DNA of 64,000 nt, taken from assembly GCA_036172245.1 (NCBI GenBank), contig JAYWIR010000012.1, forward strand, positions 2,666,001 through 2,730,000, read 5' to 3'. The DNA comes from Raillietiella orientalis (taxonomy: Eukaryota). A program made the translations under genes and the position numbers. Below, in pieces: positions 2,325 to 42,600 of the stretch (position 1 is its first letter; each line of letters opens with the position of its first letter). The notes beneath the pieces were generated by a model that ran no database searches, was not told where the DNA came from, and saw nothing but the letters and a program-made list of their open reading frames with translations.

Positions 2325-3320
2325 ACTTCGCACGAAGAGGGGCTTCACAGGAGGGATACGCGGAGAACGTTCCCACGATGCCTGGAGGGCAACATGATGC
2401 ACCAGCACGCGAGGGAAGGATTACTCCACCTTCCCGCACGTCTTTTCGTCCAGTGGTGACGCAGCACATGGCGCGGGAATCCCCAGTGCAACATCGGCAG
2501 CTCCGATTGCTGCCACAGGTGGCCCGCTCGGTCGCCACAGCCCTTGCCGCAGCGCCGTCTTCCCTGATGGCAAGCGGGCTGGGAGTTGCCCTGCATCGCT
2601 GCAGGAGCGACCAAACTCCTGCGTGACTGGACGAACTCCGAGCGAGCTGGTGAACGCCGCTCAATCCTCGCCCCCAGGCGGAGGGACTCCTTCGGTGCAG
2701 CGAACCGCCGGCCGTGTTTCTCCCCCTCTCCGAACAACTCGTCGTCCCTCCTTCCCGCGTGAACACTGCGGTATTCCCTTGAGGTGGAAACGGGATGGCC
2801 GGCTGTTTCCGCACTGGCGTTTCCAACTCAACCAGCGTGCGAACCTGGTCGCCGGGGCAGCAGAGAGTTGCCCAAACTCTTCCGGACTGCTTTTTCGACC
2901 GCGGCGCAGTCCGGGTACCGTGGCGGCGTCTATCTTCAGCGCCCCGGTACCGCGACAAGCACTTGCTGCGGCGAGTCTTCTCTCCGGACCGGCGCCGGGA
3001 TTGCGGCGATGCGCAGCATCCGCGCCACCGTCACTGCCCGCCGTGCCTCGGACGCGGCGAAGGCACGGCGGGCAGTGTCATGGCAGCCGCCTAAACGAGG
3101 GCGCAGGCGAGGTGGTCTAACCTGGAAGAGGTCGAGCTGGAGATCGCCGTCATCCCGCGCCGGTACTCAGCAAGAAGAAGGGACCCCAACCGAAGACCTT
3201 TGTCCCCACCCTTCTGCTTCGATTGATATATTGATTTGCCGTCCCCTTTCCTCCCGTTCCGGACTGCTCCGGTAGCCGACCTGCGTGTCCTGCGCAACCC
3301 TGTCTCTGAACTTCCTTTTC
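2325..3320 (+). mobile_element. 5'-truncated L1/Tx1-like element, family B; inverted near-identical copy at 20078-21087
   Basis: Identical peptides in ORFs 2623-3120(+) and 20162-20761(-). Degenerate zf-RVT (WKRDGRLFPHW...LPDCFFDRGAVRVPWRRL). Confidence 0.7.
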
Positions 3321-5879: not shown

Positions 5880-6085
5880 AGCCGTGTGGCTGCGCCGTAC
5901 CAAGCGTTGCGGGTTCGAATCCACCCGAGAAAGGATCGACGACGAGAAATGGATGCGTCGTTGGTTTCCAGTTCCCCACCCCCCTGCCCCCCACAGGACG
6001 ACGAATGAAGGAAGAATGAGGACGACGCTGGTTGGCCAGCGGACTTCGGGTGCTACAGCACTGGGTGGAAGCTGGAAACCAGATG
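5880..6085 (+). mobile_element. tRNA-derived SINE, 5' part
   Basis: GCGGGTTCGAATCCACCCGAGAAAGGATCGA...GGACGACGCTGGTTGGCC...CAGCACTGGGTGGAAGCTGGAAACC, similar to the 18196 copy. Confidence 0.65.
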
Positions 6086-11140: not shown

Positions 11141-12359
11141 CTGGAAAATCCCAGCGGTCAGCTCTCGAGAGACGGAGGACAGGACGCTGAGGAAAGAACA
11201 GACTGAAGAGCGACGAGCGTCCCAGATGAACAGATGAGGAATCTCGCAAGAATGTCAAGATCCCCCCCCCCCCTCGTAAAACGATGTAAAATTGTAAATT
11301 TAAATAATAGAAATCATCATTATCATCTTTTGAAGTCTCGGAACACATTCTTCCTTCTGCGGAAGAGTGCCATCTGTGGCTCCTTACCAGAGTGTCGGTG
11401 GAAAAGTGTGCAGCACGAAGTGGAAAGAACAAAAGTATCTTTATTCGTTTCAAGGCTGCATGACATGAGTGCGTTCGAGGCACGTCGTTGAAATGGCAAT
11501 TCAGAAAACAAAGGCGCCTCCATAAAATCGGAAAGCATCTTCAATGGCACTGCTGGGCATTTCTGAATCGTAAAAGAGCGAATGAATCCATGTGCGGGGA
11601 ACCAAGCACACGACCTTACTATAGGAGCAGTGGACGGATGCCACCGTGATATTTCCGTTAATGTAACGATATCTCTATAGAGCCACAGGATGTATAAATA
11701 CTAACACGACATAATGTAACCCAATTGTAAAATCGAGCACGTGTGCATCATGCTAAAGCATGCTCTCTCTTGTGGTAAGGAAAAAAGAGAGCGCTCCAAG
11801 TGTTTCCAGTAATGCGGATCAACGCTGTGACGCACCAACGTGCTGTCCAGACGCTGTCACCGACGAAAAGAGATTTCGACTCAGCACACGTGTTGGCAAA
11901 ATACATGTTGCACCATCCACTCACTATGACTCATTGCCCCCTCCCCCCAAGTTCTACTTCCCTGCAGCTCCTGGTACGTGCTTCAAATACGTTCCCACAC
12001 ACGCGTTTGCGCTGCTCGTCTTCGTGAGCTCAACGTTGTCTGGAGCATGGACCATCGATAGTTGAGAGTGTTTTTATTTTTCGTAAGGCGGAGAGTGCGA
12101 ACGACGCTGCCATGGCGAAGTGCCTGTGTTAATTCTCACGGGCTCGAAGGAAGGGTTTCCTTGCTCCCTCCGCGTGACACACGTAGGTCTGACACGGTGC
12201 ACGCAACCAAAGGCGCCAACACTCATTCACTTGGGCGTGTTTTGCAAATGACTCCGAGTATCAGGAAGAAGAAACAATTTGTAGCCATCACTTGTAGCTG
12301 CCTCTGAGATTACGAGGCAACGAACGCTTTACTTTGCTCGTTGTGATTGCCGGTCCCGC

Positions 12360-14005
12360 GTTGGCGGCCTGGGGAAGGGGCCCCAGCCCGCGCCACCAAG
12401 CGGATTAGAAATCCCTTCCAATGCCAAGAAAAGGGTGCGTCGTGGGTTTCGAGTGTCCCCCGCAAGATGACGCTGGTTGGCTGTTGGCTTTGGGTGCGGC
12501 GGCACTGACGGAAGCTGATTGACACCCAATCACTCCAGGGTGTTTATTTATAACATAAACATACACGTCTGTGACAGGTCATTTGATCCTGCCACGTTAC
12601 TTATAACTACGAGAAGAATCCTGCCGGGAACCGGCACGCAGGACAGTGGGGCTCGTCTCGGCAGCAGCGCAGGGAAGGAGAGACAAAAAGAAAAAAAGAA
12701 ATCAACAAAATACAGTCAAAAAAATGGGGAGGGTTCGGAAAGGGATCACCGGATGCTGGAGGGCGTCCTCTGCATCCTTGCCAGGATGCTGCCAAGTTCT
12801 TGTTTCAAGACTCCCAATGGGGCCATCTTCACGCTGAATAGATGAAGCAGAATAGATGGCGTCCCTGGCGTTCTGACTTCCTCTGGCATTGCTCCATGCA
12901 GCCACGATCCTGCCCCGTGGGCAGCAGAGTGCTATTGGGGATGTGGCCGGCGTGATTGCGCCACGCAGGAAGAGACGCTTCGAAATGTCCCTGGCGTTGC
13001 CGCCGAGGGTCCCCATGGTCGCGGCAAGGCATCCCCAAAGGGACCGGAGGGCAACACAGTCCACTAGGAGGTGCGGGAAGGATTCCCGCTCCCCGTGACT
13101 GGCATAGTTCGGGTCCACCCATCCACCAACCCGTGTCCGATGATGCCAGCGGGCGTTGCACGGAAAGCCCCAGTGCAGCAGCAGCAATGCCGACTGCCGC
13201 CACTTCAAGGGCAGGATGCGCGGAGACCGGGTATCGGTGCAGGTCTTCCTCTGGAATACTCAGTAGCAAGCTCCAGCGCAAAAGTCCATGGGGTCGAGCG
13301 ATCGGGGTGGCAGCGTCGGTGAGCTGGCCCGTCGTCCACTCATCCAGTCCTCTTCTCCTTCAGGAGATTTCCACAGTGACCTCCCATCTAGCCGCAAGGC
13401 TGCTGGCCGTGTGCTCCCTAAAGGAGGGCGGCGCGGCGGCGAAGGAGATTCTGCTTGTCCATGCACTCTTCCATGGATCTTATAGGATTTACAGGAGCGC
13501 GCAGTTGTCAGGAACGTACAGGAAACGAGGCACCTGTTCCGCGCTTGGCTCCTGGATCCTCGTCCACGTGCGAACGGTTTTCTGCAACCAGGCACTACCT
13601 GGCGGAAGCTGGTAAAAACCGAGTGTCCCTGTCAAGTGACCAGGGTTGGAAGTTGACCGTCCGCAGTCTTTCCAGGGCATCAAGGAGTCCTTCGGGGTTT
13701 CCCTCCGGTTGTGAAAACGGAGCTACACAATGGAGCTGGTTGATGCCTCTCCAGAGTGTAAGAAACGCACTGTTCCCTTCGAAGTGCGCTCCTCAGAGAA
13801 ATTGGAAAGCGTCCTTCCGGGGTTCTCCTCAGAGGAGCAAACAGGGAGCGAATCCTTCGCGGAGGGTCTTTCTGGAAAGAATAAAGAGGTTCCTTTCAGA
13901 GTTCCCTTTGGAGACCACCAGGGTGGACGGTTCCCCTCAATGGTTCCCTCCCAAGCGTAAGAGGAACGGACGCCTTCCTCCGGAGCCTTCCTGGATTTTA
14001 TAGAA
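12360..14005 (+). mobile_element. tRNA-derived SINE split by an L1/Tx1-like insertion (5' part ~12360-12519, 3' part 13599-14005)
   Basis: The 5' part GGTGCGTCGTGGGTTTCGAG...AAGATGACGCTGGTTGG and the 3' part GGTTGGAAGTTGACC...GGAGCCTTCCTGGATTTTATAG both match the 18196 copy. TSD-like repeat at the junctions. Confidence 0.75.
12520..13598 (-). mobile_element. 5'-truncated L1/Tx1-like non-LTR retrotransposon, family A (ORF2 zf-RVT C-terminus + 3'UTR), inserted in a SINE
   Basis: KWRQSALLLLHWGFPCNARWHH...ERESFPHLLVDCVALRSLWGCL is a zf-RVT-type C-terminus. AATAAA near the 3' end. Flanked by CTGACGGAAGCTGAT / CTGGCGGAAGCTGGT. Confidence 0.8.
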
Positions 14006-15289
14006 TAGTCCGTCCGTGGTTGCCTTTTAGCTTGAAGAGAATGGCAATCACAAGGTTGCAAGGGAAGGCAGCCATCCATCATTCCGAGGTTTCTCTTGAA
14101 GATTTCTGAAATTCGAATGTGTGCGTGCGCGCTTGCGCGCGTGTGTTTTCCATATGTCTTTCAAGCAACTCGATTGCAGCTTTTGAATGTATTATGCACT
14201 TAACGTGCCTTCCCCAAAATTGCATTATAAGGATGCATTCTTAGACCGGGGCAACGCAGCCCTTTATGCTGGTCTCCGGGCAGTCACCAGCAGCAACTGA
14301 AAGCTGAGGTTGTTTTCGAGCGCCGGATGGAGTTCCCCTCTGCAAAACAATAAGCGAAGAGTTGCTCGAAGGGGAAAAAATCACGCAGCGTCAGCCAAAG
14401 AAATTTTCAGTCCCGCAGAAGATAGCGGACGTCTGCACTCCAGAGTTTCTTGTGCTTTTTACGGCCTCCAGCATCGAAAATCAAGATCTGCATTCCATAC
14501 CAGCGTTTATCAGGTCTTCCAGCCGCTGGATTTCCGTCATCTAGAAAACGCGCCGCTGTTCTTCTGCCCCGGCCGCTTTTGTGGACGCCTGCGCTGTCAA
14601 GGTGAGCTCGTTTCCCGCGTTCCTCAGCTAGTGCCTCACTTCGGAATGCAGCGGCCGCCTGTGCTTCCCAAGTGGCCAACCAGAGCTGGTTTCAAGAAGG
14701 AGAAGCCGATAGCAATCTTGTGGCTCGCTGCCGACGTGAGCGCAGTCGCACGCACGCGTCTGTTACGCCGCCGGACATCAGTTTCGGGCAGGGTCTACAG
14801 ACAGGAACCGCTCACCCCGCAACCGCCAACTTGCCCTCGTTATTCTTCCACCTTCTGAACGCTGTGATGATGATGGTGCCCTCACCAGAAGGACGAGTCC
14901 CAAAGACCTGCTTTTTGAGGAGACCCCTGACCAAAAAAGGACTATGTTGGTCACCGCCTCGGCAGGTAGCTGCAAAGATGGCGCGAAATCGCGGTGTCGA
15001 CAAGGGATTCGGGCGTCGGCAGGAAGCAACAGTACGAGAGAGCGCGATCTTTAGCCGCTCACTGATGCTGCCATTCGTCTTTCACGAAGATCACTTTGCG
15101 CACGCGACCGCAACCGCGAGCTGAGCAGCTGCCGAAACTGCGGATCGGGAACCATCTGTGGACAGTCTTTCCATCCGGGTGCTCCGGGGCATTTCTCGTT
15201 AATAATAAACGTGCAAAAGCGATGGCAGGACACTCGGTCCTGACACGTTCATCTAAGGCGGAACTTGGAGAGAGACCGGTACGAAGACT

Positions 15290-15900
15290 ATCGGGATATC
15301 TGCAAATAGTTGTTTCCTCGGCAGCAGAGGGGAGGGAGACAAACAAAAAATAAAAAGGTTAATGTAAAAAAAAATCTCTGGAGGAATCGAGAAGGGATCA
15401 CTGTCTACTGGAGAGCGTGCCCTCTGCATCCTTGCTAGGATGCCGGCAAGTTCCTGTTGCACGTCTTCCAGATGGGGCCATCTCGTTGCATCCTCAGGAA
15501 ACGGACTGCAGAAAAGATAGAGTCCCCGTCGTCCTGGCCTTTTTCGGCAGCGCTTCAGGCAGCCACAAAGCTGTCTAGGCCAAAGTCAGACCGCCAGCCG
15601 CGCTCCCTGAGCAAAGAGCTGCTGGGGACGCGGCTGGCGTCAGAGCATACCGCTCAAAGAGGCGCTTGATAGGCCACGTCTCTGGGGTTGCCGTCAGGGG
15701 ACCCGCAGCGTCGCGGCAAAACGTCCCCACGGGGACACGGTGGGCAACGGAATCCGCGGGCAGATGTGGAGGGATTCTCTCTCTCCGCACCTGCTGCAGC
15801 CTGGGCTCACACCCTCCCCTTGAATCCAGTGATGTCGGCGGGCATTGCACGCCCCCCACTCCCACCCCAGTGAAACAGTAGGATCTCCGAGCCTGCAGTC
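15290..15900 (-). mobile_element. Diverged family A L1/Tx1-like 3' fragment
   Basis: Similar to the family A tail (CCTCTGCATCCTTGCTAGGATGCCGGCAAG...GGGCCATC...GCGGGCATTGCACG) with a T-rich 3'UTR. Confidence 0.65.
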
Positions 15901-16949
15901 ACTCGATGGGAAGGGTGTGGGGGTGTTCCTTAGCATTGGGGACCACTCGACATCTTTCCGGGGAATTCCGAGTAGCTTGCCCCACCTCTAAAGTCCTCCT
16001 TTGGGAGGGGGAGGGGAGAGGGAGGCTGTTCTGGCCCACGTGCACTTGGTGCGATACACGACGATCTCCTAGAGCGGACAGCTGCTGTAGAAGGAATGTA
16101 GCAATCTCTGTCCTGGCTCAGGGCTGGTCTCGTTTTGGGGCAGTCGGATGCGGCTTCCGGTTGCGCCTCCCTCTCCGGTCCTCCGCGTCTCTCGGATGCA
16201 CAAGGCTTCCTGGAGCTGGAAGCCGGCGATCTTCTTGCGAGTCGCATTTGAAAGACAAAGGCGCCAAAAGAGAGAGAAAGAGAGAAACACTTGGCAGTTT
16301 CCTCCCAGAAGCTCCGTGGAGACCTCATCTTCCCATGGCCTCCAAGCATTCCCCACCGTTCCCTCGTCTGGTTTCGCCCTTCCCTCCCTCGAGGAAAAAG
16401 TCCTCACCCCGCCTTCCGTTTGTCCCGGAGGCACCTTCCCTCGGCGTCTTCCTCCCCCCTCCCCCCTCCCAAGGGATACCCGGGTGCCTGTTCACCCTGA
16501 ACAGGAGACAGTCGGAGACGCGCTCCTTCCTCTCCTTCATCCCTTTTTCCGAAGCGATGATTTATCGGGCGGCTTGGTGTAATGACGCACCTCCGCGTTC
16601 CTAATGGTGAGCGGAGGCGGTCGGGTGTGCTGCTGCCAGGCTTGGCTCACGTCATCATTTCAGGGAGAGCTTTGCGCTCAGCTGCCTCCATCTCGGGCGA
16701 CACGGGAATAGCTTTCGGCCACGAGCACCTCAACGCGACACGCGCGCACCTGAGAGCGAGCCAAATAGCATGCAGCCACAAGTACAATCCGTACGGTAGC
16801 AGGGTCCGCGTGCGTGTACACATGGCTGCGTGCGCTGCGGCGCGGAATGGAGTGATGCTGATTTTGCGTGTTGGAAAGCATCGGAACGGCGGGTGCACGT
16901 GGACGAACCAACGGGCGTTCAGATCGTTGTTCCACGTGGAGGAGATCTC

Positions 16950-17460
16950 ACGAGTTTGCCCGCCTCCATCCGAGTTCGAGGAAGATGATGGGGAGTGGTG
17001 TGGGGGGAGGACTGCATCCCCGAACCGCTGTTCCAGGTGCGGGTCGATGGAGTCGACCCCGCACCGGCTGCTGGAACTACGGCGGTACCCTCCAGGAAGT
17101 GATGCCTTCAGCGCTCTTCCTCCACACTGAGGACCCTGCCAAGGACTCGCTGCGGCGATTCTTTGCAAGAGGCGGAGTCACGATGGGCGCCGTGACTGCG
17201 ACGACGTCCTGCCTCCGCGCCATCGTCACGGCGGTCCGCCACGTGCTCGAGACGGGCCTGGAGAAGGGGGGAGAGCCGTGATGGCAGCCGCCCACGTGAG
17301 GACGGCTGGCTGCGAGGTGGACTCACCTCGAAGAGGAAGTGAAGGCGGAGATCGCCGGGTCTGAACACCGGTAGCCCCTGCTTTCACCATCCCTTTATTT
17401 ATTTATTGTCCTCTCCCTCCCGTTCCCTATTTGCAGATATCCCGACCTGCATGTCCCTGG
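16950..17460 (+). mobile_element. Diverged family B-related L1/Tx1-like 3' fragment
   Basis: CSRCGSMESTPHRLLE zinc-knuckle remnant, AIVTAVRHVL, and nucleotide similarity ATGGCAGCCGCC...GAGGTGG...GGAGATCGCCG to 3080-3165. Confidence 0.6.
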
Positions 17461-18195
17461 GCCTTCCCCTTCGTCTTCGGTTGGGAACCGACTTCCTGAC
17501 TGGTTTATTTGTTTTTGTTAAATGAACGCCCCCGGGCGTGACTGGGCGATAATTCTAAGTTCGAGGGGCGGGCCAAAAAAAGAAATTCTTTCCAGCGAGC
17601 AGGCGACCAGGAGATGCGGGCAACCAGCAGGCTGCTTGGACCCGGTTTCCGAAGCAAAGACCGATGCGCTCCCCAAAGATGCGGAGCAAGAACAAATGGA
17701 CCACCTCCACGCTCGGGCTCTCCGTGGGCTCAGCGGTGCCTGCTAGCCCGCGAAAAATCTCAGCTTCCTCCGCAGCACAAACAAACACAGGAACAGGGCA
17801 ATTTGTAATCCTGGGAAGTGAAATGGATGGCACTGACGCCAGAGGCACTGACGTGTAGCAGGAAATGTGTTTTTTTTCGGGAAGGGGGGGACGGAATTCA
17901 TTCATCCCGAACGGCGTGCCCCTTTCAGCGTGTGCGCTGACGAGAGGAAACGAACGATCGGGAAAGATTCCAAACAACGCGGTGGCCGAGGCGCGGCAGC
18001 CTCCGGAAACGAAAGCCCCTGGACCACCTCCTTTCGGAATCGCTTCCCGGACAGCCATCCTGGTCCGTGAAGATGAGCGGACCCTCGGGAACCCGACGAA
18101 TCACGCATCCCGAAACGCGAATGGATGAGCCCAAAGATGCAGAGGTGGCCCTGTCCGGAGTCGATGCCAGCAGCGGTGGTGAAGCAGAGGACACG

Positions 18196-18770
18196 GCCCG
18201 CGTGGGCCGACCGAGCGGCTGCGGTCTCCGCGCTCGGCACCGGGAGTGGCGGGTTCGAATCCCACCCGGAGAAAGCATCGATGCCGAGAAGGGGAGGTGC
18301 GTCGTGGGTTTCGAATCACCCCCGCAGGACGACGCTGGTTAGCCTCTTCGGGTGCAGCATTGGAGGGAGCAGGATGTCCCCGTTGACTAGTCTGGATTGG
18401 AAATTGACCCTCCGGGATCCTTCCAGGCCATCAAGGAGCCCTTCCGAGTTTCTCCCCTCCAGTTGTGAAAATAAAGCTGCCCTCCCCTCGGAGGGGGATC
18501 CTTCATCGCGTAACACGGAGCTGGCTAATACCCCCCTGGGGGTCACCTCTCCGGAGCGTAAGAAGCGCGCGAAGGGAGCTTCGGGGTTCTCTCCAAAGGA
18601 GGAAGCGAAGAGCGGATCCTTTCCGGGTTCCCTTCGGAAAAGAAATGAGGAATGCTCCCCTTCCGGGTGGTCCCTTCGGAGAGAATAAGGAAGAGGTGGT
18701 TCCCTTCGCAAGCGTTAAGAGGAACGGACGCCTTTCTCCGGAGCCCCTCATGGATCCATACGGTGGATCT
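18196..18770 (+). mobile_element. tRNA-derived SINE, most complete copy (~570 bp)
   Basis: The tRNA-like head has a degenerate A box (GTGGGCCGACCGAGCGG) and a B box/T-arm GCGGGTTCGAATCCCAC (~18249-18265). The body is shared with 5 other copies and has a common 3' end (GGAGCCYYYMTGGATCCATA). Confidence 0.75.
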
Positions 18771-18799
18771 ATTGGTCCGGGGTTGCCTCCTCACTCAGA

Positions 18800-19750
18800 G
18801 AGTCACACGCACCCTCGGGCGGCGCGAACAGTGTTCAGGGAACGCTTCTGTGAGAGATCCCAGCGGTATACATCTCCGAAGAGGTTCGGTGTCTGCCGAC
18901 TTCTCTTGAAGAGGGAGAGTGGCTGGCGGTGAATCTGGCGGGGAAGCGGCCGCTCTGATGCTTCCCCTCCCCTCAGGGTCTTCCGAAGCGGATTGACTGA
19001 TTGACCCAAAAGAGCAAATCTGCTGACCGGGGTTCAAGCTCGTCTGCCTCACATGGGGGACGGCAGCACATGCGGTCGCATCCCACCCCCGCGGAACGAA
19101 GAGATGCGCTACTTCCAGACGTGCCTGCCTCGTCCTCGTACGTCCCTCTCCAGCTCGTACGATCAGATAGCTCGGGTCGGAGGTTCTGTGAACATTCTGT
19201 GGTCGTACGGGTTGCTTGGGAGCGATAGCGCACGTGACTGGAAGGCGGGAAGCCGAAGGTGCCAAGCAAAACTGCCCACGGTGTCGGAATGTGGTAGATC
19301 TTCAAGTATCGGAGAGCAGAGCGAGAAGCCAGGAAGAAAAAAAGATCCATCGCTCCCATGGAGGGCTCCCTTCACTCTTCAGAACTCTTTGGGCAAAACC
19401 CGGCTGGAATTCCTGCCTGCAAGAGCAGCTGGAGGAGCAAGCAGGAATTTCCCCGAGGACCCGGAAGATAGCGCGCGATCCAGGCTTCAACCGGATCTGT
19501 TGCTCCGAGAAGAGGGGTGCACGTGACCATGCTGGACGCCGCCTGCTGTTTTAAGAACTCGCTGGCGACTTTGGAAGAGCCAAGAACTCCAAGAGACCCG
19601 GCACATCCGTCAAGAAGACGACGGTGTGGTGAGAGAGCCGAAGAGCGCGAAGTGGCAGGCGAGGCGCGTAAGGAGAAAGAATGGTGGTACTTTCGAACGC
19701 CGAGCCACAGCCCGGGTTGTGCAGTGGAGGTCGCGTGTGGTTCGCAGGTG
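18800..19750 (-). pseudogene. Decayed APE endonuclease fragment of an L1/Tx1-like ORF2
   Basis: Peptides FFFLAS...PWAVLLGTFG (GDFN-like) and SDPSYLIVR...RQARLEVAHLF (SRLD-like). Confidence 0.45.
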
Positions 19751-20077
19751 CCTGTTTTATGCACTGCGGGTGGTCTCAGTTTAGCTCCTGATCAAGATTC
19801 TCCCGTCGAACCGCCAGCATCACGCGCAGAGTCGTGAAGAGTAAAAAGAATGCCTCTGGCGCATCATCGACCATTGCAAGTATCATTCCCAGGTAATCAC
19901 GAAGAGCCACGACAAGCAGACCCATAGGATCAAGGGGATAAAGGTAGGCCAATGGGGGCGAGCTGCCTCCGACCGATTCCCAAGAGGGTTTTCACCCGTT
20001 GGTGCCGGGGCGTTTATTCTATAAAAACAAACAAACAAGTCGGGAAGACAGTCCCCTCCCCCCCTCTTCGCCAGAAA

Positions 20078-21087
20078 AACAGGAAGTTCAGAGACAAGGT
20101 TGCGCAGGACACGCAGGTCGGCTCCGGAGCAGTCCGGAACGGGAGGAAAGGGGACGGCAAATCAATGTATCAATCGAAGCAGAAGGGTGGGGACAAAGGT
20201 CTTCGGTTGGGGTCGCTTCTTCTTGCTGAGTACCGGCGCGGGATGACGGCGATCTCCAGCTCGACCTCTTCCAGGTGAGACCACCTCGCCTGCGCCCTCG
20301 TTTAGGCGGCTGCCATGACACTGCCCGCCGTGCCTTCGCCGCGTCCGAGGCACGGCGGGCAGTGACGGTGGCGCGGATGCTGCGCATCGCCGCAATCCCG
20401 GCGCCGGTCCAGAGAGAAGACTCGCCGCAGCAAGTGCTTGTCGCGGTGCCGGGGCGCTGAAGACAGACGCCGCCACGGTTCCCGGACTGCGCCGCGGTCG
20501 AAAAACCAGTCCGGAAGTGTTGGGGCGAACCAGCTGCAGGTTCGCACGCTGGTTGCGCTGGAAACGCCAGTGCGGAAACAGCCGGCCATCCCGTTTCCAC
20601 CTCAAGGGAATACCGCAGTGTTCACGCGGGAAGGAGGGACGACGAGTTGTTCGGAGAGGGGGAGAAACACGGCCGGCGGTTCGCTGCACCGAAGGAGTCC
20701 CTCCGCCTGGGGGCGAGGATTGAGCGGCGTTCACCAGCTCGCTCGGAGTTCGTCCAGTCACGCAGGAGTTTGGTCGCTCCTGCAGCGATGCAGGGCAACT
20801 CCCAGCCCGCTTGCCATCAGGGAAGACGGCGCTGCGGCAAGGGCTGTGGCGACCGAGCGGGCCACCTGTGGCAGCAATCGGAGCTGCCGATGTTGCACTG
20901 GGGATTCCCGCGCCATGTGCTGCGTCACCACTGGACGAAAAGACGTGCGGGAAGGTGGAGTAATCCTTCCCTCGCGTGCTGGTGCATCATGTTGCCCTCC
21001 AGGCATCGTGGGAACGGCTCTCCGCGGTCTTTCCCATCCCAGTGGGCAACCCTGTCATCTCCTGTGAAGCCTCTCTTCGTGCGGAGC
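20078..21087 (-). mobile_element. 5'-truncated L1/Tx1-like element, family B
   Basis: Reverse complement of 2325-3320 with few differences. Confidence 0.7.
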
Positions 21088-21499
21088 GCCATCAAGTCGC
21101 TTTCCATCAAGGAAGAAGGCGCTGCGGCAAGGGCTATGACGGGCTATCTGGGCGCACTTCGACGAGTCCTGCAGGGCATCCTCGAGCTAGCGGAGTAGGA
21201 AAGGGTACTCACCATTACTCTCGAGTTAATCTCTTCCTTAGAAAGCCGTCCAAAGACTTTGGAGGGTGGTGGGAAAGGAAGGCGAGCAAGTGCCGTACAC
21301 TTTTCTCATGTGGTTCTTCTCCCCGAATTGCAGGGACATTTATTTAACATAAATACACAAGATTTGTGCAGTTAGAGAAGGAGTGATGTGTGTCCTCCCC
21401 AATCCAGAGGGGAGTCAGTACCCTCTCTGGATTGAGAACTGGGGAGGAGTAGAGGGAAGGCCAATAAACAGGTGAAGAAATGGGGGATGGAATGGATCG

Positions 21500-23020
21500 G
21501 CCTCTGGCGAGCCTGCGTCGACCAGCGAAGGGACGGGAGGGGTCAGGAACCTTCCCAATTTTCCCTGCGCATCACGTTCGGGCCGGACGGCGTGAGTCCG
21601 ATCCAGGATGGCGTCCGCTCCACGGTCCTTTCACGGTCACTCGCTGCTAGCGCATGACACTCAGTCACCGGCGAGGGGACAGTGGGAAAGTCCTTGAAGC
21701 AGGGGGAAAGGGGGGAGGGAGAAGTGTCCGGGAAGAAAGGTGCAGCCCCCATTCCCGCGCTTGGAAAGCATGCGGGAGAGGGTTGCAGCTATCTCGCGGT
21801 GGATGAGGCCTTCTGACGACGTTCCTGGCATCGGGGGGAGGCCACAGCGCACCAGCACGTGGGACCCGGGCAAGAACAATGTCCTGGAGCTCCTGCAGAG
21901 GTGGGGCAACCTCTTGAGGAGACGTGCAGCACTCCCGCCTGATGTTCTTGGGAGGCAGAGGACGGGTGATCCTCCTGCCAGGAGATGGCGCTGATCGAGT
22001 TTCATGAGTGAAGGTCGCGGAGTTTCTCCCGCCCGCCCTTCCCAGCGACTCCACCGGGCGTCTCTGCTCATCAGAGATTGTCGCCGGAAGGCGTCAGATG
22101 GACCACCGGTCGCTCTGGGACCACCTTGGAGAGCCACAGGACCGGCCAGAAGCATGAGAGGAGGACAAAGTCCCCTTGGGGAAATGCTGGGAAAGCCTCC
22201 TTCTCCTCCCTCTCAATCTGCTTGGTCTGCGTGTGGCAGAGAAAGCGCGAGAACACGGAACAGAAAATCTACTACACGTGGAACACGGGTGTCTTCTTGC
22301 ATGCGGGGGCGATGGACCAGCAAACAGACGCTGCGACCCCGAGTGACCCAGCTGGAGGACTCTTGCATGGGTTGAGCTGCTCGGAATTCCGTAGGGAGAT
22401 CTGCAGTGGTTCCCAGTGCTTTTGGACACGCTCACCCTCCTCTTGAAGTGGCAGGGGTCGGCGCTGCTGCTGTTGCTGCTGCAATGGGGCCTCCCGTGCA
22501 GCGCCCGCCGGCATCACTGGACACGGGGGATAGGGGGAGTGGACCCGAGCTGTGTCAGGTGCGGGGAACGTGAATCCTTCCTCCACCTGCCTTTGGATTA
22601 TGTTGCCCTCCGCCCCCTCTGGGAAAGCTTTGTCGCGACCCTGGGAACTTCCCGGGACGTACGTGAAGTCCTTCGTCCGGCAGCCTCGCAAGAAGCTCCC
22701 TGCTGCCTAGGGGGGATCGTGGCTGCCTGGAGCAATGCAAGAGGAGGACCGAGAGACAGGGATGCCACATCCACTTCGCCGTTCGCTTCATGAAAATGGC
22801 AACGAGATGGCTCCACCTGAAGGACTGCATGCAGCGAGAGCTTTCCAGCATCATCGAAAGGATGCAGAGGACCGCCCCCAGCAGGACGCATCCCCTTCCC
22901 TCATCCTCTCCAAAGTTTGTTCATTTATTTATTTATTTCCTTTTTGTTCGCCACCCTCTGCTGCCGTGGCGGACCTCACCGGTCTGCGAACCGGTGGCGC
23001 GGCAGGTTAAATCTAAAAAA
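21500..23020 (+). mobile_element. Diverged family A L1/Tx1-like 3' fragment with the best-preserved zf-RVT
   Basis: KWQGSALLLLLQWGLPCSARRHHWTRGIGGVDPSCVRCGERESFLHLPLDYVALRPLWESF (ORF 22416-22793), followed by a T-rich 3'UTR. Confidence 0.75.
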
Positions 23021-25839
23021 GACGTGGTTGAACCTGTGGTCTAATCACAGATATCGTAAGTGTTAATTTTATATATGGAGAAGGGGTGCACCCAGGTGGC
23101 AATCCTGCGTGTGCGGAGTGCGCGTGACTGGGCAGCCGCTGCGGAGGAAGGGGACACCCGGGGATTCGAGCGAGCGCTGCTGCGGGAGAGGGAGTGGGTG
23201 GGGTCCCTCGAGCGCCATGCAGGAAGCGGTCCCCGGCCCGAGGTCGTGACTTCGGAGGCAGGCAGCAGCGGCATCGCTTTTTGCAAGCGCGGCAGATCCG
23301 CAGGCATAGCTGCTTCCAAGACGCTCTCTGTCACGCGCGCGTCCTGGCAGATTCCGTTTTTTGCGCCGGGCCTCCCCTCCCCCCCTCCTCTTCTTCTTTT
23401 TCCTTGAGTTTTTCCAATCAATAAATTACGAGGTTCTGTGCAAGATAACTTAGGGGGAGGGGGGGCTATTTTTACTAACTGGAGGAGAAGTCAGCTGGGG
23501 ATGGGGCAGGACACAGTACAACAAAGAGGGCGGCGAGATGAATGGAGGACTTGATGCTCGCGTAGCAACAGCACAACTCTCACCTTTTTTTCTTTTTTGT
23601 TCCTTCTCCTTTCTTTTTCTTTTCTTCTCCTCTTGTTTTTTTTTTTTTCGGGAAGGAATTTTATGGCAAGTCGAGGGAGGAGAGCGCAAGCCACCGCAGA
23701 GACGCAGGGTCGAGGCGTACCTTTGAAAGAAGCGGGGCACGGGAAGAGGAAGTGGAGGAGCGCGGACCGGCGACGTGGAGGCCGAGCAGGGAGGAGGATA
23801 CGACAGCGGACGGACAGGATGACGGTCGCCGAGGACACGGGCGAAGCAGGCGACGGGGAGGAAACCGACCATCGGGGGGATGAAGGTGGGGAGGAGGAGA
23901 CGTCCAATGAGAATGCGGCGGCGGGGACTGCCACCCGGCAAGCCACTTCTGGTCGACCCGTGCGCGCTCAGAGGGATAGCGGGGGCGAATGCCCGTGTCC
24001 ACGCGACGCTTATCGACAGCCTGCGCGTCTCGCGGAGAAGCATCTGCGGCTCGGCCATTTGCTCGGAGACCGCTGCCGCATCCATCCCGGTTGTTTCCCG
24101 AGGGCGCCTCCGCCGTTCGGTTCGCGCGAGAGGAAGACGGAAGGACCTTCCTCCGACCCTCGTGGAGCGGCCTCTCGGCCGTTCCGCGAGGGGTCGAAGG
24201 ATCCCCTTCTAGGATCGATCCCTGCAGCTCGCGAGGCGCACCACCCGCCCCATCTTTCGCGGGAGGCTGCCATCTGGAGAGCCGACCTCACCTGCGCGCG
24301 CCTCCCGAAATTCTCCGTGCTCTTCAAAGCGTCCGCCACCAGACCGGCCCAGTCGAGCTGAGGTTGTCGCCGCATCTTTCCTCCTCCTCCCCTCCCTCCT
24401 CCTCCGCCTCTTCTCTTTCGGTTAATCGCGGGTTTCCTGTTCCGTTTCGTGCCCGTAGAGCGTGCGTTTCTCCGGCACGCTTAGCAACGCAGAGGCAGCG
24501 CTCTCGCGGATCCGGGGGCAGGGCGCGCGGATTTGCTCCGAAGGGCAAGATGAGAGTTTCGCTAAGTCTTCCGCGTCCCCGCGCGTGCTTCCCTCGTGTT
24601 TCCCCCGCGAGTGCACCTCCAGGGCCTCCGTCCCTCATCCCGGAACAAAAGGATGCAGCTCGCTCGTGGCAGGGCTTTGTCCCCCAACATGTGCTGGGAG
24701 GGGGGAGAGAGAAGGATGAGAAGCTGCCGGTGTTCCTTTGGGGATGCCCGCAAGCGGCCCTCGTCGGATTCCTACATGGTTAACTGCTTCCAGAAGCTGA
24801 TCCTGTAAGGATACGAGGGAACTGTGCGAAGCCGAGAGCCAGCTAAAAAAAAACATTCCTTTTCTGGTGGGATGTTCCGGAATTTACCTCCTTTTTTTTT
24901 TATTTTACCTTTTGACTTTGGCGTCGAGATGAAAGGGAACTGGCGAGCCTATCCCGGAAGTGCTTCAATAAGCTCGCCAACCTGCTGCAGGAGAGACGCA
25001 GTCTCCAGGCATGACGACCCGTTTCGAAGTTGAAGTTGCGAGTGGCTGCTCAGGGCGCTCGGTATTTCGTTTTATTTTATTTTTTCCTCAATGAGCCAAA
25101 ACACGTGTTTCGTGTTTCTCTAAGTGGGTCTTCTTCCACGAAAGGTTTTTTTTTCGTGGCATCTTCCTGCGTTTCCTTGATTTCTCATCAGCAACCCTCC
25201 GAAGCAATCATTCTAAAATGCTTGTAACCTGTCTAATTCCTCCCCCCTCCCTCCCTCTCTCTCTCTCTCTCCTGCTCAGCTCCCCCTTCATGTTTTTAGG
25301 ATTTGGGGGCGCTCTGTATCTGCGCCGTCTTCCCTCCCAATCCCAACCAGTTTCGTGCTCTTCTACTAGATGGCATCGTAGTCGCGGCGGAGGAAACGAC
25401 CCCGAGACGGAAAGGAGCCTGTCGTACGGATCCCGCATCGCGGTGTTCGGCTTGCCCATAGCCTCCCTACCCGAACACGTAAAACACGGGACCCCCGTGT
25501 GCTTCCTGTCCCACACCGCGCGCCTTAATGCGGAAATCCCGCAGGAGCTCGCAGCTTGGGATTTTTGAAAACGGGTGCGACACGGCTTTCCTGTGCGGAG
25601 CGTGTACAACTGACGAGCACCTCCCGTGTGTAGGCAGGGAGCACGCAGCTTTCCCCTCGCATGCGTGTAAACCCCTTGGTTGTCGTCGAGCACGGGACGT
25701 TTAAAAAACAAAAAAAGAAGGGGGGGGGGGAGTCCTGCAGGGCGGTGGTTTTTCACCACCCGGTTATGCCGACGCATTCATTTTAAAAAGCGAAAATACA
25801 TCTTGGTGGTAGAACACTGGGCTCTGCCACGTGCTTGGA

Positions 25840-26480
25840 ACCTTGCAAAGACCGGCGAGATCCGCTTCGGCAGCTAGGGGGAGGAAGGGAGAACCGAAAG
25901 CGAAAAAATAAACAAACCCACACAAAAAAGGGAAAGTTTCACTCTTGGTGAGAGGTGGGGAGCGGGAAATAGAGGAAGGAGTCGCAGTTCGCTGCCAGGC
26001 GCATCCTTTGCACCCTGTCCAGGATGCTGGAGAGGTTGCTCCGGATGTTGCCCAGGTGGGGCCATCTCGTGGACGTTCCTCTTCATCCCGCACCCCAGGA
26101 CGCCACGATCCTGCGAGGACTGCAGAGAGCTGCGAGGGACGCACGCGGCTGGCGGCAGTGCGGCACGCACGCACGAAGAGTCGTTTCAAAGTAATCCCTG
26201 GGGCCGCCCGGCGGAATTGCGAGGGTCGCCTCTAGGCGATCCCAGAGGGGTAGGAGGGCAGCACAGTTTAGCAGCAGGGCGGTGGCGACGAGTGCTTTCA
26301 GGAAGATACTCGGAGAACCACAGATTGGAAGGAGGGAGGGAGGGAAGGATAGGGTGGAGTCCTTCACTGGGGTTCTCTCTCTCCCCCCTAACCCACTCCC
26401 TAACGGAAGCCAAGCCAGCGGCCGTAACTCCCACCGAAGAGGGCGTTCGCACGTGCATGCTGTGCGCCTAGCGTGGGGGG
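25840..26480 (-). mobile_element. Diverged family A L1/Tx1-like 3' fragment
   Basis: LLLNCAALLPLWDRLEATLAIPPGGPRDYF peptide and the shared 3'UTR. Confidence 0.7.
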
Positions 26481-27949
26481 AGGCTCGGCCTTTTCGGCCG
26501 AGACCGAAGCGTTCAATAGAGTAGAAATCCCTCCCTCCAAGTGCCGGTACCCCTTTGAGGGAAACAGGGAGGGCAAATTTCCTTCCCATCGAAGCTTTCC
26601 TGGCTGCTGCGGAGAATTCTTCCAGCCTCCCGATCCATCGGAAAGTCAATGGCGACGCAGGGGCGAAAAGGAGGAGAAGGGAAGGCAAATAAAGTGCGTT
26701 TCGGGGGGAGAGGGGAGAAATGCGAAAAATGCGGCTTCTTCTTCTTCCTGATCTCGGTGGCGGAACGCCATTCTTCATTCTTGGAATTTCTTTCCTCCAG
26801 ACAGGTCAAAGAAATCAAAAGAAAGAGCCTCTAATTTGGGGGGAGGGGGAGGGAAAAAAGAAAAAGATGGTGCTGATGCAGGCCCGAAACGATTCCTGAT
26901 TCGGACCGATAACCCCCGAGCGCGGTCGGGGGGAAGAAAGGCTGGCTACTGGCCGCGCCGGGTGGAGGGTCGCACCCCACGTTCGCGCCGGAGCCATCGG
27001 TCGTTATCGGCGCGCGTGCGTGCGTCAAGGCAGTGGGCGGCGCTGGAAGGAAATCCGCTTGTTCGGCGGGGGCGTCAACTGATATCCTCGGGGCGGCTGC
27101 CTTTGCAGCGGCGGCGCGAAGACGGGAGTGTCGCGTCTCGCGGAACGCCGGATACGCGGGGTATGCGGACCTCTTCATCTTGTGGCACCTCGCGTTTCCC
27201 GAAACGCCTTAACGAAGCGTCGGGGCTCCGCGTGCAAAAGGGAAGAAGGGACGGAATTCCCACGGAGGGGGGTGCTCTGCCGAAAGCGCTGCCCGGCGGA
27301 CTCGCGGGGTTTCCTCAATGGTGATCCGAGCGAACCCGCACATCCACACTTCGCCAGCGCGCTCCTCTTCCGGTTGCCGAACCCGGAGGGCACTCGAGGA
27401 TGCAGTACCTGCTCGTCTGAATTCACCAGATGGGTACGCCCTGATCCTGCTCCAGATGCACAAGCACATTCCTAGTTTTTTTTTTTGGCTCTCCGCAGCC
27501 CCCGAGCTCTGTCGTATCTTCCCTCCCTCCAGAATGCCACACAGATGCACTAAGAGCTAATTGATACATCAGCAGCAACTGCCTTCATCCTGTCATCCAC
27601 CTTCTTCCCAATCACCTACCTGAATTTTATGCGCCTCTGTTTTTCCCCTCAGTTTTTTTTTTTTCTATTTTGCGACGCGCAGAAGACGAAACACTTGTTC
27701 CCCCCCCAAAAAAAGGTAACGACAGAAAGGGAAGGGCTGTGTGCGCGGAGAGGACACGCTAAGCAGGGGAGATTTTTATTATCGTTACTATTGATGAGTT
27801 TCATGATAATCATACTATATCAAAGATCCTGATGAAGTACGATTTCGTTACTATCGGTACTATTGATGATTATCACCCGGTTATTCCAGGACATCTCTTA
27901 CATAAGGTAATGAAAATACATTGGTGTGGAGGAACCCTTGGTTCTGCCA

Positions 27950-28930
27950 CACGCAAGGAACCTGCAGAAGAGCGGTGAGCAGACCGACGAGGTCCGCTTC
28001 AGCAGCGTGGGGGAGGAGAAAACAAAAAATAAAAATAAAAATAAACGCACAAACAGGCGAGAGGAATTCTTACACGGGGAAGGGAGGGATCACAGTACTC
28101 TGCCAGGCGTCCACTGCATCCCGTTCAGGATGCTGGCAAGTTCCGTCCGTATAACGCCCAGGTGGGGTCATCTCGAGACGGTCTTCACGAAGATCTTGGC
28201 TCAGCGGATGGCGTCCCTGCCATTTCCGCCTCTTCTTCCCTCGTTGCAGACCGTGACGATCCCGCAGAGACCGCAGAGAACTGCGAGGGACGCACGCGGA
28301 TGGCGGCAGTGCGGTACCACTCATCAAGAGGCGCTTGGAAATGTCCCTGGAACCGCCCTCCGGGATTCCTAGGATCGTCGCAAGGCGATCCCAAAGGGGT
28401 CGGAGGGCAGCACACAGTCCAACAGCAGGTGCGGGAGGGTCTTCTTCTTCTGTCGCACTGAACGTCCGCGCTTCCCCGTGTCCACTGGTGAAGGTGCGTT
28501 TTTCACGGGATTCCCTCATGCACCGCCAGCAATGTCAACTCCCGTCAATCGAGGGGGGGGACGCCACTGCTCCAGTACTCTGGGGGTCATTTCACTTCCT
28601 CCGAAGGGATGTTGAGCAGCTTCTCCCAGCGTACGAGTCCGTGGGGTGGGACACTCGGAGTATCCGTCACCTCCCGAGTTGCCCACCCGCCCAGAAGCTT
28701 CGTCTTTGTTTCTGTGCGGCATGCTGGGCTTACACTGTCCCTTGCGTCCGTGAGGGAGAGCAGCACTGGGGTAAGCGGAACGGACGAGGCCCACCTCATC
28801 TCCTATGGGTTGCGGACCATCTCCTCCAATGCCTCGCGAGAGTTGACGCCTGGCCGCAGGCAGGAGCACCCCGCCTCGCTTGCGCAGTGGATCCTTCCCC
28901 AGGCGAAAACGGGACTCCTGGAGCCAGGCA
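27950..28930 (-). mobile_element. Diverged family A L1/Tx1-like 3' fragment
   Basis: LCAALRPLWDRLATILGIPEGGSRDISKRLLMSG peptide (ORF 28070-28519) and the shared 3'UTR. Confidence 0.7.
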
Positions 28931-29164
28931 GTGAAGCTTGCTGGAAGGCAGGAGATTCTGGTGCTAGGCTGATGGGAATCCTTTTTTTCTGTTTCCGCTG
29001 CTTTCCTTACAGCTTTTTTTGCTTCAGTTTTCCTTTTTTCTTTGGTTCGTCAAGTGCTGAAGAACTATTGTCCCCCTCAGGGCAGTGGAGGCTCACGAAA
29101 CTCTTCCACGCTGTCCACACCACCCGGGGGTGCGCGTAACTTCACGTTAGAGGGGCAACTCTGG

Positions 29165-30660
29165 AAGGATCACCCTATGGATCCAGGAAGGCTCCGGACG
29201 AAGGAGTCCGTTCCTCTTACGATTGGGAGAAGAACCCAGAAGGGAACCTCCTCTTCCTTGTTCTATCCGGAAGGACTCCCCGGAAAGGATCCGCTACCGG
29301 TTTGCTCCTCTGAAGAGAACCCCGGAGGGACTCTTCCCAATTTCTCTGGAGGGTGCTCCCCGAAGGGGGCGGCGCGCTTCTTGCAGTCTCGAGGGGCATC
29401 AACCAGCTCAATGGCACGTTATGGAGGGACGGCTCCATGATTCCTGGAAGAACCCCGGATGGGTCGAATTCCAATCCTGGTCAGTCAGTGAGGTAATTCG
29501 GGAGTTTCCGTCTTCCACCAGTGCCGCACCTGAGATCCTGTAAGATCCATGGAAGAGTGCGTGGACAAGCAGAATCTCCTTCGCCGCCGCGCTGCCCTCC
29601 CTTAGGGAGCACACGGCCAGCAGCCTTACGGCTAGATGGGAGGTCACTGTGGAAATCTCCTGAAGGAGAAGAGGACTGGGCGAGTGGACGACGGGCCAGC
29701 TCACCGACGCTGCCACCCCGATCGCTCGACTCCATGGACTTTTGCGCTGGAGCGTGCTACTGAGTATTCCAGAGGAAGACCTGCACCGATACCCGGTCTC
29801 CGCGCATCCTGCCCTTGAAGTGGCGGCAGTCGGCATTGCTGCTGCTGCACTGGGGCTTTCCGTGCAACGCCCGCTGGCATCATCGGACACGGGTGGGTGG
29901 ATGGGTGGACCCGAAAATATGCCAGTCACGGGGAGCGGGAATCCCTCCCGCACCTCCTAGTGGACTGTGTTGCCCTCCGGTCCCTTTGGGGATGCCTTGC
30001 CGCGACCATGGGAACCCCCGGCGGCAACGCCAGGGACATTTCGAAGCGTCTCTTCCTGCGTGGCGCAATCACGCCGGCCACATCCCCAATAGCACTCTGC
30101 TGCCCACGGGGCAGGATCGTGGCTGCATGGAGCAATGTCAGAGGAAGTCAGAACGCCAGGGACGCCATCTATTCTGCTTCATCTATTCAGCGTGAAGATG
30201 GCCCCATTGGGAGTCTTGAAACAGGAACTTGGCAGCATCCTGGCAAGGATGCAGAGGACTCCCTTCAGCATCCGGTGATCATCCTCCAGCATCCTCCCCA
30301 TTTTTTTGACTGTATTTCGTTGATTTTTTTTTTTTCTTTTTGTCTCTCCTTCCCTGTGCTGCTGCCGAGACGAGCCCCACTGTCCTGCGTGCCGGTTCCC
30401 GGCAGGATTCTTCTCGTAGTTATAAGTAACGTGGCAGGATCAAATGACCTGTCACAGACGTGTATGTTTATGTTATAAATAAACACCTTGGCGTGATTGG
30501 GTGTCAACCAGTGCCGCATGCGGAGTCAACCAGCGTTATCCTGGGGGAGCAATCGAAACCCAGGACGCGGCCTCCTTCTCGGCGTGGATCCTCCACATGG
30601 GGATTCGAACCAGCGACGCTTGGGGCCGCGCGCTGAGGCAGCAGCCACGCGGCTGACGAT
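29165..30660 (-). mobile_element. tRNA-derived SINE split by an L1/Tx1-like insertion (5' part 30660-30507, 3' part 29528-29165)
   Basis: B box GGTTCGAATCCCC on the minus strand (~30612-30600). The 3' half matches the other copies. Perfect 12-bp TSD at the junctions. Confidence 0.8.
29529..30506 (+). mobile_element. 5'-truncated L1/Tx1-like element, family A, near-identical to 12520-13598, inserted in a SINE
   Basis: Same zf-RVT peptide and 3'UTR. TSD ACCAGTGCCGCA at 29517-29528 and 30507-30518. Confidence 0.85.
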
Positions 30661-30799
30661 GCGGGGGCGTGATGCACGGCGTCATCCAACTCAGGACATG
30701 GACCTTCCCTCGGTGATGATTCTGAGTTTCTGTTTCTTTGCATAAGATCGGGAACAGACCCGGAAGTGTCATTTCTTTTCGTGTGCCGGTCGAAAGTCG

Positions 30800-33600: not shown

Positions 33601-33892
33601 GACCGTGAGGGGCGACTGAGGATGCTGGCCGAAAGCGGTGAAGGGAGGAGAACCGGTTGAGCACGCGGTTGGGGGTGAATTTGCCTCTCAGCTCTCTCGT
33701 TGGAGTCGAGTTTGAAGTGATGTGTCGCTGAGGAGGGAGGTCGTGGTCGGTAATGACTGTAGCGGCTCGGAATGACTTCAGTCTTCAAGATGGGGTGCAT
33801 CCCCCAAATGACATCATTAGAATGATGAGAAGCACTTATGTTGATATTCAAATCGAGACTTCTTGTATGAGAAACAGTACGACGGTGCTCGC

Positions 33893-34290
33893 TTTGGCGG
33901 CCGCGTGGCTGTTGCCTCCGCCCGTGGAACCGAGCGTTGCTAATTCGAATCCCTCCCGGGGGAGGATCGACGCCGAAAACAGGGGGTGCATCGTGAGTTC
34001 AACTTCCCTCTGCAAGATGACGCTGGTTGGCCTATTCGGGTGAGGCGGCACTGGTGGCAGCCGGAAACCCCTGCGTGTCCCTTTTGACTTGCCAGGATTG
34101 GAAGTTGATCCTACGGGGTCCCTCCAAGAATCAAGGGGCTCTTCGGGGCTACCCCCGGTTGTGAAAATGGAACTTTCATTTCTCCAGGGAGTGCCATGGA
34201 TTTGGTCGATATACCCCTCAGGGGGTTGCCTCTTCAGAACGTCAGAAGCGCGCTGTCCCCTTCGGGGAGAGCCCTTGAGAGAAACAGTAG
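33893..34290 (+). mobile_element. tRNA-derived SINE, 3'-truncated, with uninterrupted target motif
   Basis: AATTCGAATCCCTCCCGG...AAGATGACGCTGGTTGGCC...GCGGCACTGGTGGCAGCCGGAAACC...GGATTGGAAGTTGATCC. Confidence 0.7.
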
Positions 34291-34399
34291 AATGAGCATA
34301 AGACATGGACTGTTTGGGAGAATAGGGAGGTCAGTGCTTGGGCAAACGTAGCGTAAAGAGTCAGTCGTGCACTCAAGCACACACACAAACACCTATTGT

Positions 34400-42254: not shown

Positions 42255-42600
42255 AACCATCCTGTGAATCCAGGAAGGGCTCCGGAGGAAGGGGTAGATT
42301 CCTCTTACATTTGCTAAAGGAGCCATGAAGGAAACCTACTCTTCCTTGTACTCTCCGGAAGGACCCTCCAGTTTGTGGGGGCCACACCTCCTTTACTCCA
42401 GGTTCTCCGGAGGGAACCCGGAAAGGATCCACTCCTTCATTTACTCCTCTAAAGATAACCCTGAAGGGTCAACTTCCAATTTTCTCTGAAGCGGCGCCTA
42501 CCGAAGGGAGCAGCACGTTCAGAGAGAGGCAACCCCCGAGGAGGGAGTCAGCCAGCTCCATGGTACGCGATAGCACGGCTCCATTTGAGAGGAAACCCTT
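42255..42600 (-). mobile_element. tRNA-derived SINE, 3' part
   Basis: The reverse complement matches the SINE 3' half (ATGGAGCTGGCTGAC...AGAGAAAATTGGAAG...CCGGAGCCCTTCCTGGATTCAC). Confidence 0.65.

Follow-up and report, generated by a model that had tools for sequence, protein, structure and literature searches.

The 64-kb window considered here (positions 2,666,001 to 2,730,000 of contig JAYWIR010000012.1 from Raillietiella orientalis) is repeat-rich, with a G+C content of 58.6%, and contains two copies of a 5'-truncated element resembling long interspersed nuclear elements (LINEs), referred to below as family A. Each copy interrupts a copy of another dispersed repeat that resembles a short interspersed nuclear element (SINE), and both inserts are antisense to their host. 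Copy 1 (A1) occupies positions 12520-13598 on the minus strand (1079 nt) and copy 2 (A2) positions 29529-30506 on the plus strand (978 nt); they have in common the 3' terminus GGGTGTCA, which lies at 12520 and 30506, respectively, and their 5' truncation points are 101 nt apart, in line with the approx. 100 bp given in the initial annotation. A global alignment that included the flanks yielded 96.9% identity over 968 aligned bases (24 transitions and 6 transversions; Kimura two-parameter distance, K2P, of 0.032), and a BLASTN comparison of A2 (29529-30506) with the window matched its positions 7-978 (29535-30506) to 13488-12520 on the opposite strand at 96.7% over 972 columns. Thus, the two near-identical elements with a common 3' end that had been described at these positions are confirmed.

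Neither copy carries poly(A); the sequence ends ...GATTGGGTGTCA and the target site duplication (TSD) follows directly. The TSD of A2 is ACCAGTGCCGCA, found at 29517-29528 on the 5' side and at 30507-30518 on the 3' side (12/12 identical), and that of A1 is CTGACGGAAGCTGAT next to the element 3' end (12505-12519) and CTGGCGGAAGCTGGT next to its 5' end (13599-13613), which match at 13/15 positions; the sequences and positions proposed previously were exact in both cases. Relative to the uninterrupted SINE copies, these 12 and 15 bp are duplicated. CTGACGGAAGCTGAT differs by two G>A changes from the SINE consensus as well as from its partner. The change is identical at both mismatches (CTGG to CTGA, plus strand), and both are located in the copy adjoining the element 3' end. 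At the other end of A1, the first bases on the element strand (GTAGTGCC..., 13584-13598) repeat the TGCC that also follows the TSD in the target, and the A1 TSD may therefore be 19 nt long with a 4-nt filler, or TGCC may represent 5' microhomology.

The host repeat forms a unit of approx. 620-660 bp (positions 3-617 of a hidden Markov model, HMM, made from the aligned copies). This HMM recovers only the copies from which it was built, six dispersed copies in all, of which five contain the region targeted by family A. The two interrupted copies are S1, on the plus strand, with a head part at 12342-12519 and a body part that resumes after the insert at 13599-14039, and S2, on the minus strand, with its head at 30507-30678 and its body at 29094-29528. 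Three further copies on the plus strand, S3 (18186-18849), S4 (33875-34329), and S5 (5852-6273), are uninterrupted, in agreement with the earlier statement that the motif is intact at approx. 18350, 34040, and 6047, whereas S6 (42111-42586, minus strand) is 5'-truncated (HMM positions 291-614) and is devoid of the target region. S5 carries an insertion of approx. 37 nt in the SINE body when compared with the other copies (about 5990-6030), and an extra short SINE fragment adjoins S6 at 42590-42686 (HMM positions 395-479, E 0.0015).

The head of this repeat carries A-box-like and B-box motifs of the RNA polymerase III (pol III) type at tRNA-like spacing, as in a tRNA-derived SINE. An exact B-box, GGTTCGAATCC, was found in S2 (30601-30611), S3, and S5; these constitute three of the four matches with at most one mismatch in the window, where 1.9 would be expected. 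In S1, the B-box is degenerate (GGATTAGAAATC at 12402-12413). An A-box-like match (9/11) begins 44 nt ahead of the start of the B-box in S2 (where it reads CAGCCGCGTGG) and S4, and 33 nt ahead of it in S5; no such match occurs in S3, and in S1 it is degenerate. The initial annotation had called the repeat a tRNA-SINE. The promoter-like motifs bear out one part of that name, but the head is not recognisable as a tRNA: ARAGORN at default settings reported no tRNA in the window and none in the five heads at default and ps90, its calls on the SINE heads at ps80 and ps70 were mutually inconsistent, and Rfam gave no match in the window at gathering score. At E<=10, Rfam returned four weak unrelated matches on S3, none of them a tRNA, and only a 17-nt T-arm-like hairpin can be seen there. 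No Pfam match was found in the SINE-like copies. It is reasonable to speak of a SINE with a pol III-type head, whereas a tRNA-SINE is not demonstrated.

The two insertions are independent events, a conclusion that is well supported because the breakpoints, the TSDs, and the 5' truncations all differ and because the divergence of the flanks exceeds that of the inserts more than tenfold. Taking the first nick from the TSD that adjoins the element 3' end, the pre-insertion sites on the SINE sense strand read ...GCGGCGGCACTGGCGGAAGCTGGT^AAAAACC... in S1 and ...GCATGCGGCACTGGT^GGAAGACGGAAAC... in S2 (^ marks the nick). In SINE coordinates, a distance of 10 nt separates the two nicks, and the overlap between the TSDs amounts to just 5 nt. 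The comparison of insert-insert with SINE-SINE divergence that had been suggested as a check shows hosts far more diverged than their inserts: the flanks of A1 and A2 are 68.4% identical over 225 nt on the element 5' side (K2P 0.42) and 66.4% identical over 113 nt on the 3' side (K2P 0.45), as against a K2P of 0.032 for the inserts. In local BLAST alignments, flank identity is 71-79%. The BLAST alignment of the insert does run on into the 3' flank (12423-13499 vs. 30583-29525), as would be expected if one composite of SINE and insert had been duplicated or mobilised as a unit. Nonetheless, that explanation can be given almost no credence and is excluded by the differing breakpoints, 10 nt apart, the separate TSDs, the different 5' ends, and the gap between flank and insert divergence; the earlier argument against a single segmental duplication thus holds. 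A LINE-SINE chimera produced by template switching was also considered and rejected, since the SINE lies in antisense and is interrupted by DNA that has TSDs at its ends.

Family A is best explained as a young non-LTR (non-long terminal repeat; LINE-type) retrotransposon, of which A1 and A2 would be dead, 5'-truncated products of two separate events of target-primed reverse transcription (TPRT). The assignment is made on anatomy, because the copies share a 3' end, are truncated to different extents at the 5' end, are flanked by TSDs of variable length, and encode a tail resembling the zinc-binding region zf-RVT. The missing poly(A) sets them apart from the L1 clade, whose elements are of the poly(A) type. 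With A1 as the query, nhmmer detected six further relatives in the window, C (22296-23078, plus), D (15180-16037, minus), E (27874-28704, minus), F (25758-26277, minus), G (1876-2516, minus), and H (20868-21101, plus). The matches of C-G extend to query positions 1055-1076 of 1079, and that of H ends at 653. C, which as a whole spans 22296-23102, is approx. 66% identical to A, and C-F are older copies; G as a whole spans 1866-3322, with its 3' end near 1866. An alignment of the 3' ends of seven copies (A1, A2, and C-G; H was left out, as its match stops at 653/1079) revealed a common plan of the 3' untranslated region (3'UTR), which comprises a T-rich stretch, a 10-bp hairpin, and a small terminal stem and has no poly(A). 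The hairpin lies at 12571-12595 (minus) in A1 and at 30431-30455 (plus) in A2, and its 10-bp stem is conserved among the seven copies: 86.7% of the hairpin cells in the alignment are paired vs. 36-51% with slid partners, and four pairs show changes on both sides (compensatory changes), a count attained by 33 of 500 shuffles. In its behaviour, family A belongs among LINEs of the stringent type, as it has no poly(A) and a conserved 3' hairpin.

The window also holds a second young pair, from an A-related LINE family represented by G and H. The segments 2359-3322 and 20075-21026 are 96.6% identical over 966 columns and are inverted with respect to each other. Unlike the A pair, they have an identical 5' boundary (3322 and 20075); similarity of H is lost at approx. 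21084, whereas G continues to the LINE 3' end near 1866. The arrangement has the appearance of a segmental duplication, or of a copy with a truncated 3' end, and not of two TPRT events.

What is left of the coding region in A1 is an open frame of 185 amino acids (12705-13259, minus), the C-terminal end of the element open reading frame (ORF), which runs into the 3'UTR and whose tail is conserved in the relatives. It contains ...LPLKW...LLLLHWGFPCNARWHHR...GERESFPHLLVDCVALRSLW..., and copy C keeps an intact CX2CX7H motif, DPSCVRCGERESFLH, for which family A has Y..H at the two Cys positions. We take CX2CX7H to be the pattern of the zinc-binding region downstream of the reverse transcriptase (RT) in L1-type ORF2 (Pfam zf-RVT, PF13966). 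The family A ORF tail resembles zf-RVT by language-model features only: in the ESM Atlas, a feature-based search that yields leads only, zf-RVT was named in 26 of 30 named hits for copy C (score 0.94) and in 27 of 30 for copy 1 (score 0.95), with recognition below the guide value of 2300 in both cases. The AlphaFold2 model of the copy-C ORF had a mean pLDDT of 46.2 and was unusable. Several results weigh against this reading of the element. Pfam recognised no family in the 284 stop-to-stop ORFs of at least 110 amino acids in the window (148 + 136); neither RT nor the apurinic/apyrimidinic-type endonuclease (APE) was seen in the window, and no alignment-based homology was found for the element protein. 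A phmmer search with the 185-residue ORF gave 0 hits among 1.84 billion representatives, and a profile of seven sequences was passed by 0 of 8000 candidates among longer proteins and gave 0 hits against PDB sequences at E<=10. Furthermore, two mismatches in the 15 nt of the A1 TSD exceed what would be expected from an insert divergence of approx. 3%. The absence of RT is expected, because all copies are 5'-truncated. When nine element ORFs were searched against Pfam at E<=10, nothing relevant emerged, the one match (NP1-WLL, E 4.6) being irrelevant. A Penelope-like element was also considered and is thought unlikely, as no hammerhead (Rfam) and no GIY-YIG domain (Pfam) were found and the ORF tail is zf-RVT-like.

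The choice of insertion site is of particular interest. Both nicks lie directly after CTGGT on the SINE sense strand, and both TSDs start with ACCAG on the element strand. There are two CTGG(N) positions in the motif region, and the initial annotation correctly placed the two CTGG(T) motifs approx. 10 nt apart, with the TSDs starting at one or the other. In S1, the insertion used the second position (CTGGT), the first being CTGGC; in S2, it used the first (CTGGT), the second being ACGGA. Each occupied host was hit at its only CTGGT within the motif region, a regularity that the initial annotation did not mention. The nicks are 10 nt apart because two positions are offered and each host kept one CTGGT there. 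Aligned by SINE homology, the two sites share GCGGCACTGG(C/T)GGAAG. Of the uninterrupted copies, S3 has a degenerate motif (GCAGCATTGGAGGGAG; ATTGGA, with the second position deleted) and S5 reads CTGGG and CTGGA, so that both are without CTGGT in the motif region, and S4 (GGCGGCACTGGTGGCAGCC) has an intact one that is unoccupied. CTGGT is present in the motif region of three of the five SINE copies (S1, S2, and S4), and two of the three are occupied.

On these grounds we lean, with moderate confidence, towards the view that family A prefers this region of the SINE, the context being recognised and CTGGT serving as the point of nicking or priming. The first nick would fall on the SINE sense strand right after CTGGT, as the TSD geometry indicates, inside the motif that is still common to both hosts, and a second nick 12 or 15 nt away would then give rise to the TSDs. 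The context would probably be recognised by the endonuclease or by DNA-binding parts of the element protein. CTGGT might then determine the exact nick, whether because the endonuclease is specific for it or because the RNA 3' end, ...GUCA(ACCAG), anneals to a primer ending in CTGGT-3'. The ACCAG tail could be supplied by read-through from a master copy residing in a SINE, given that the element RNA itself ends ...GUCA. Within this context, the SINE would serve as an abundant and harmless landing site. According to PMC4494074, such co-transcription can strengthen target-specific integration.

A number of observations weigh against a preference of this kind. The S4 site, with its intact CTGGT at the first position, is empty, and a CTGGT located approx. 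30 nt upstream (GACGCTGGTT), which is conserved in all five SINE copies, is never occupied. When the S1 and S2 sites are aligned at the nick rather than by homology, they share only ACCAG, and they are therefore a poor fit to a rigid sequence-specific endonuclease. The 3' flanks of C-G, the five older relatives with readable flanks, show no SINE similarity, and any preference for the SINE is therefore confined to family A and does not extend to the whole group. Finally, there are only two insertions, from one window picked post hoc from a very large scan. Two of two family A copies are SINE-borne, which is too few copies to be judged against the criterion applied to target-specific families, namely one sequence type in >20% of flanks (PMC4494074). 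Of the earlier proposal of an abundant SINE as the target of the family, the occurrence of both copies in the motif stands, while use by the family as a whole is not established, C-G lying outside SINEs. The independence of the two events, their geometry, and a LINE-like anatomy are shown; a preference across the family and its molecular basis are deduced from the two cases.

The same observations can be read as no SINE targeting at all: family A would insert almost anywhere, or at any ACCAG/CTGGT, and the shared motif would be a coincidence exposed by a large screen, perhaps in a SINE-rich region tolerant of insertions. We consider this unlikely, although it is the most serious of the alternatives. 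There are only two insertions, the 126 ACCAG sites in the window make a 5-nt nick preference cheap, the relatives C-G lie outside SINEs, and other CTGGT sites within SINEs are empty. However, both inserts have the same orientation and fall in the same 10-nt neighbourhood of a repeat of approx. 650 bp, where the only motif CTGGT was used in both hosts, and two of the three eligible SINE sites are filled vs. none of approx. 121 other ACCAG sites. If insertion is uniform, P = 6.8e-4 for a second insertion that has the same orientation and is no more than 10 nt, in either direction, from the homologous position of one of the four other copies. If ACCAG alone suffices, P is approx. 4e-4, calculated by hand as (3/124)(2/123), where the 124 pre-insertion ACCAG sites are the 123 counted plus the S1 site and three of the 124 are in the motif. 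These values are nominal and post hoc and come from a scan of approx. 250,000 windows, so that P values of 4e-4 to 7e-4 are not decisive; they make coincidence unlikely without excluding it. A scan of metagenomes with a 19-nt pattern of the 3' end returned a single locus (L001), which has no other similarity to the window and is a chance match.

The position of the nicks relative to the SINE head invites another explanation, in which factors bound at the A and B boxes would tether the integration machinery, as in Dictyostelium TRE3, and a nearby CTGGT approx. 100 nt downstream would be nicked. Indeed, the distance from the B-box to the nick downstream of it is 94 nt in S2 and 106 nt in S1, the element 3' end faces the tRNA-like head in both cases, and a position that varies within a window suits a tether more than a fixed recognition site. 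The A-box-like motif that begins 44 nt ahead of the B-box in S2 and S4 speaks for this model as well. The 3' end of TRE3 also faces the tRNA gene. According to PMC5006619, TRE3 integrates approx. 100 bp downstream of tRNA genes and encodes APE, RT, and a zinc finger. Family A resembles TRE3 in that its insertions, too, lie approx. 100 nt downstream of an A/B-box unit of the pol III type and vary somewhat in position; the TRE3 ORF2 has a zinc-finger region at its C-terminus (PMC5006619), which the zf-RVT-like tail of family A may match. Nonetheless, pol III tethering appears improbable here. The B-box of S1 is degenerate (GGATTAGAAATC) with an adjacent 5-nt deletion, and most of this decay probably predates the insertion, because the SINE K2P is approx. 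0.4 and that of the insert 0.03; moreover, the SINE heads are recognised by no tRNA model. Unlike TRE3, which has poly(A) and is found at real tRNA genes (PMC5006619), family A is without poly(A), the head it faces is no recognisable tRNA, and the B-box of one host has decayed.

A further possibility arises from the 3' ends of the SINE itself. At 29094-29175, 18770-18849, and 42111-42190, these read ...GCACCC(C/T)CGGG(T/C)GG(T/C)G..GAC and resemble, by eye, the terminal stem region of the LINEs, for which the 3' ends at 25754-25800, 15169-15200, and 23070-23102 were compared. CCGGGTGGTG is common to S2 and LINE copy F, and GCACCC..GG.TGG is found in copies C and D. The similarity suggests that the SINE was mobilised by this LINE group, although it covers a short stretch, was assessed visually, and concerns relatives of A, not A itself. 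In this respect, the pair is reminiscent of LINE/SINE partnerships of the stringent type, in which the SINE tail copies the LINE tail: there is a conserved 3'UTR hairpin, poly(A) is absent, and the SINE tail resembles LINE tails. It differs from them in that the likeness is short, by eye, and to relatives of A, and a partnership alone does not imply targeting. Combined with the CTGGT geometry, it leads to a scheme that we regard as rather improbable. Family A would home to a SINE whose own mobility depends on the LINE superfamily to which A belongs, and a read-through tail (…GUCA-ACCAG…) from a SINE-resident master would anneal to CTGGT-3' ends elsewhere, so that RNA-DNA homology, not the endonuclease, would specify the target. 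If homing by RNA homology were true, the non-autonomous partner of the parasite would become its safe harbour.

To return to the favoured reading, a preference of family A for this SINE region, its closest counterparts are found in the Tx1 clade, described as occurring in animals, many elements of which are target specific. In PMC4494074, Tx1 (Tx1L) is reported to insert into the piggyBac-type Tx1D, Keno into U2 genes, Kibi and Koshi into microsatellites, and other Tx1-clade families into LTR elements, while crocodilian Tx1-Mar inserts into Mariner-N4_AMi "around" two positions, at one of them in the opposite orientation. As in Tx1L/Tx1D and Tx1-Mar, family A represents a LINE found repeatedly in a defined region of an abundant, old, and dispersed transposon, in a fixed orientation and with TSDs; as in Tx1-Mar (PMC4494074), insertion occurs "around" a position and not at one base. 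Unlike in the Tx1-clade cases, the target would be a SINE-like repeat, and family A is known from two copies without RT or APE, as against the hundreds in the published cases.

The right-hand third of the window (40001-64000) has a G+C content of 62-63% vs. 51-60% on the left, with long open frames on both strands, and none of its 136 ORFs had a Pfam match. A tandem array is located at 59913-60373 (103-bp unit, 4.5 copies, 99% matches), and a pair of direct repeats at 61598-61796 and 63332-63527 is 88% identical over 199 columns.

At present, these insertions constitute a clean lead of two cases, in which SINE targeting is plausible and specificity is not demonstrated. The known targets of APE-type elements listed in PMC4494074 are RNA genes, microsatellites, DNA transposons, and LTR elements, and the literature searched, which did not cover Repbase reports, yielded no account of a SINE-targeting LINE family. 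If confirmed, the SINE would be a new target class for a known kind of target-specific LINE. Target-specific LINEs illustrate ways in which selfish elements keep the harm done to their hosts low, and they also provide a basis from which tools for programmable insertion can be developed. Within this context, a confirmed case would provide a natural setting in which rigid sequence recognition could be compared with RNA-guided annealing and with pol III tethering.

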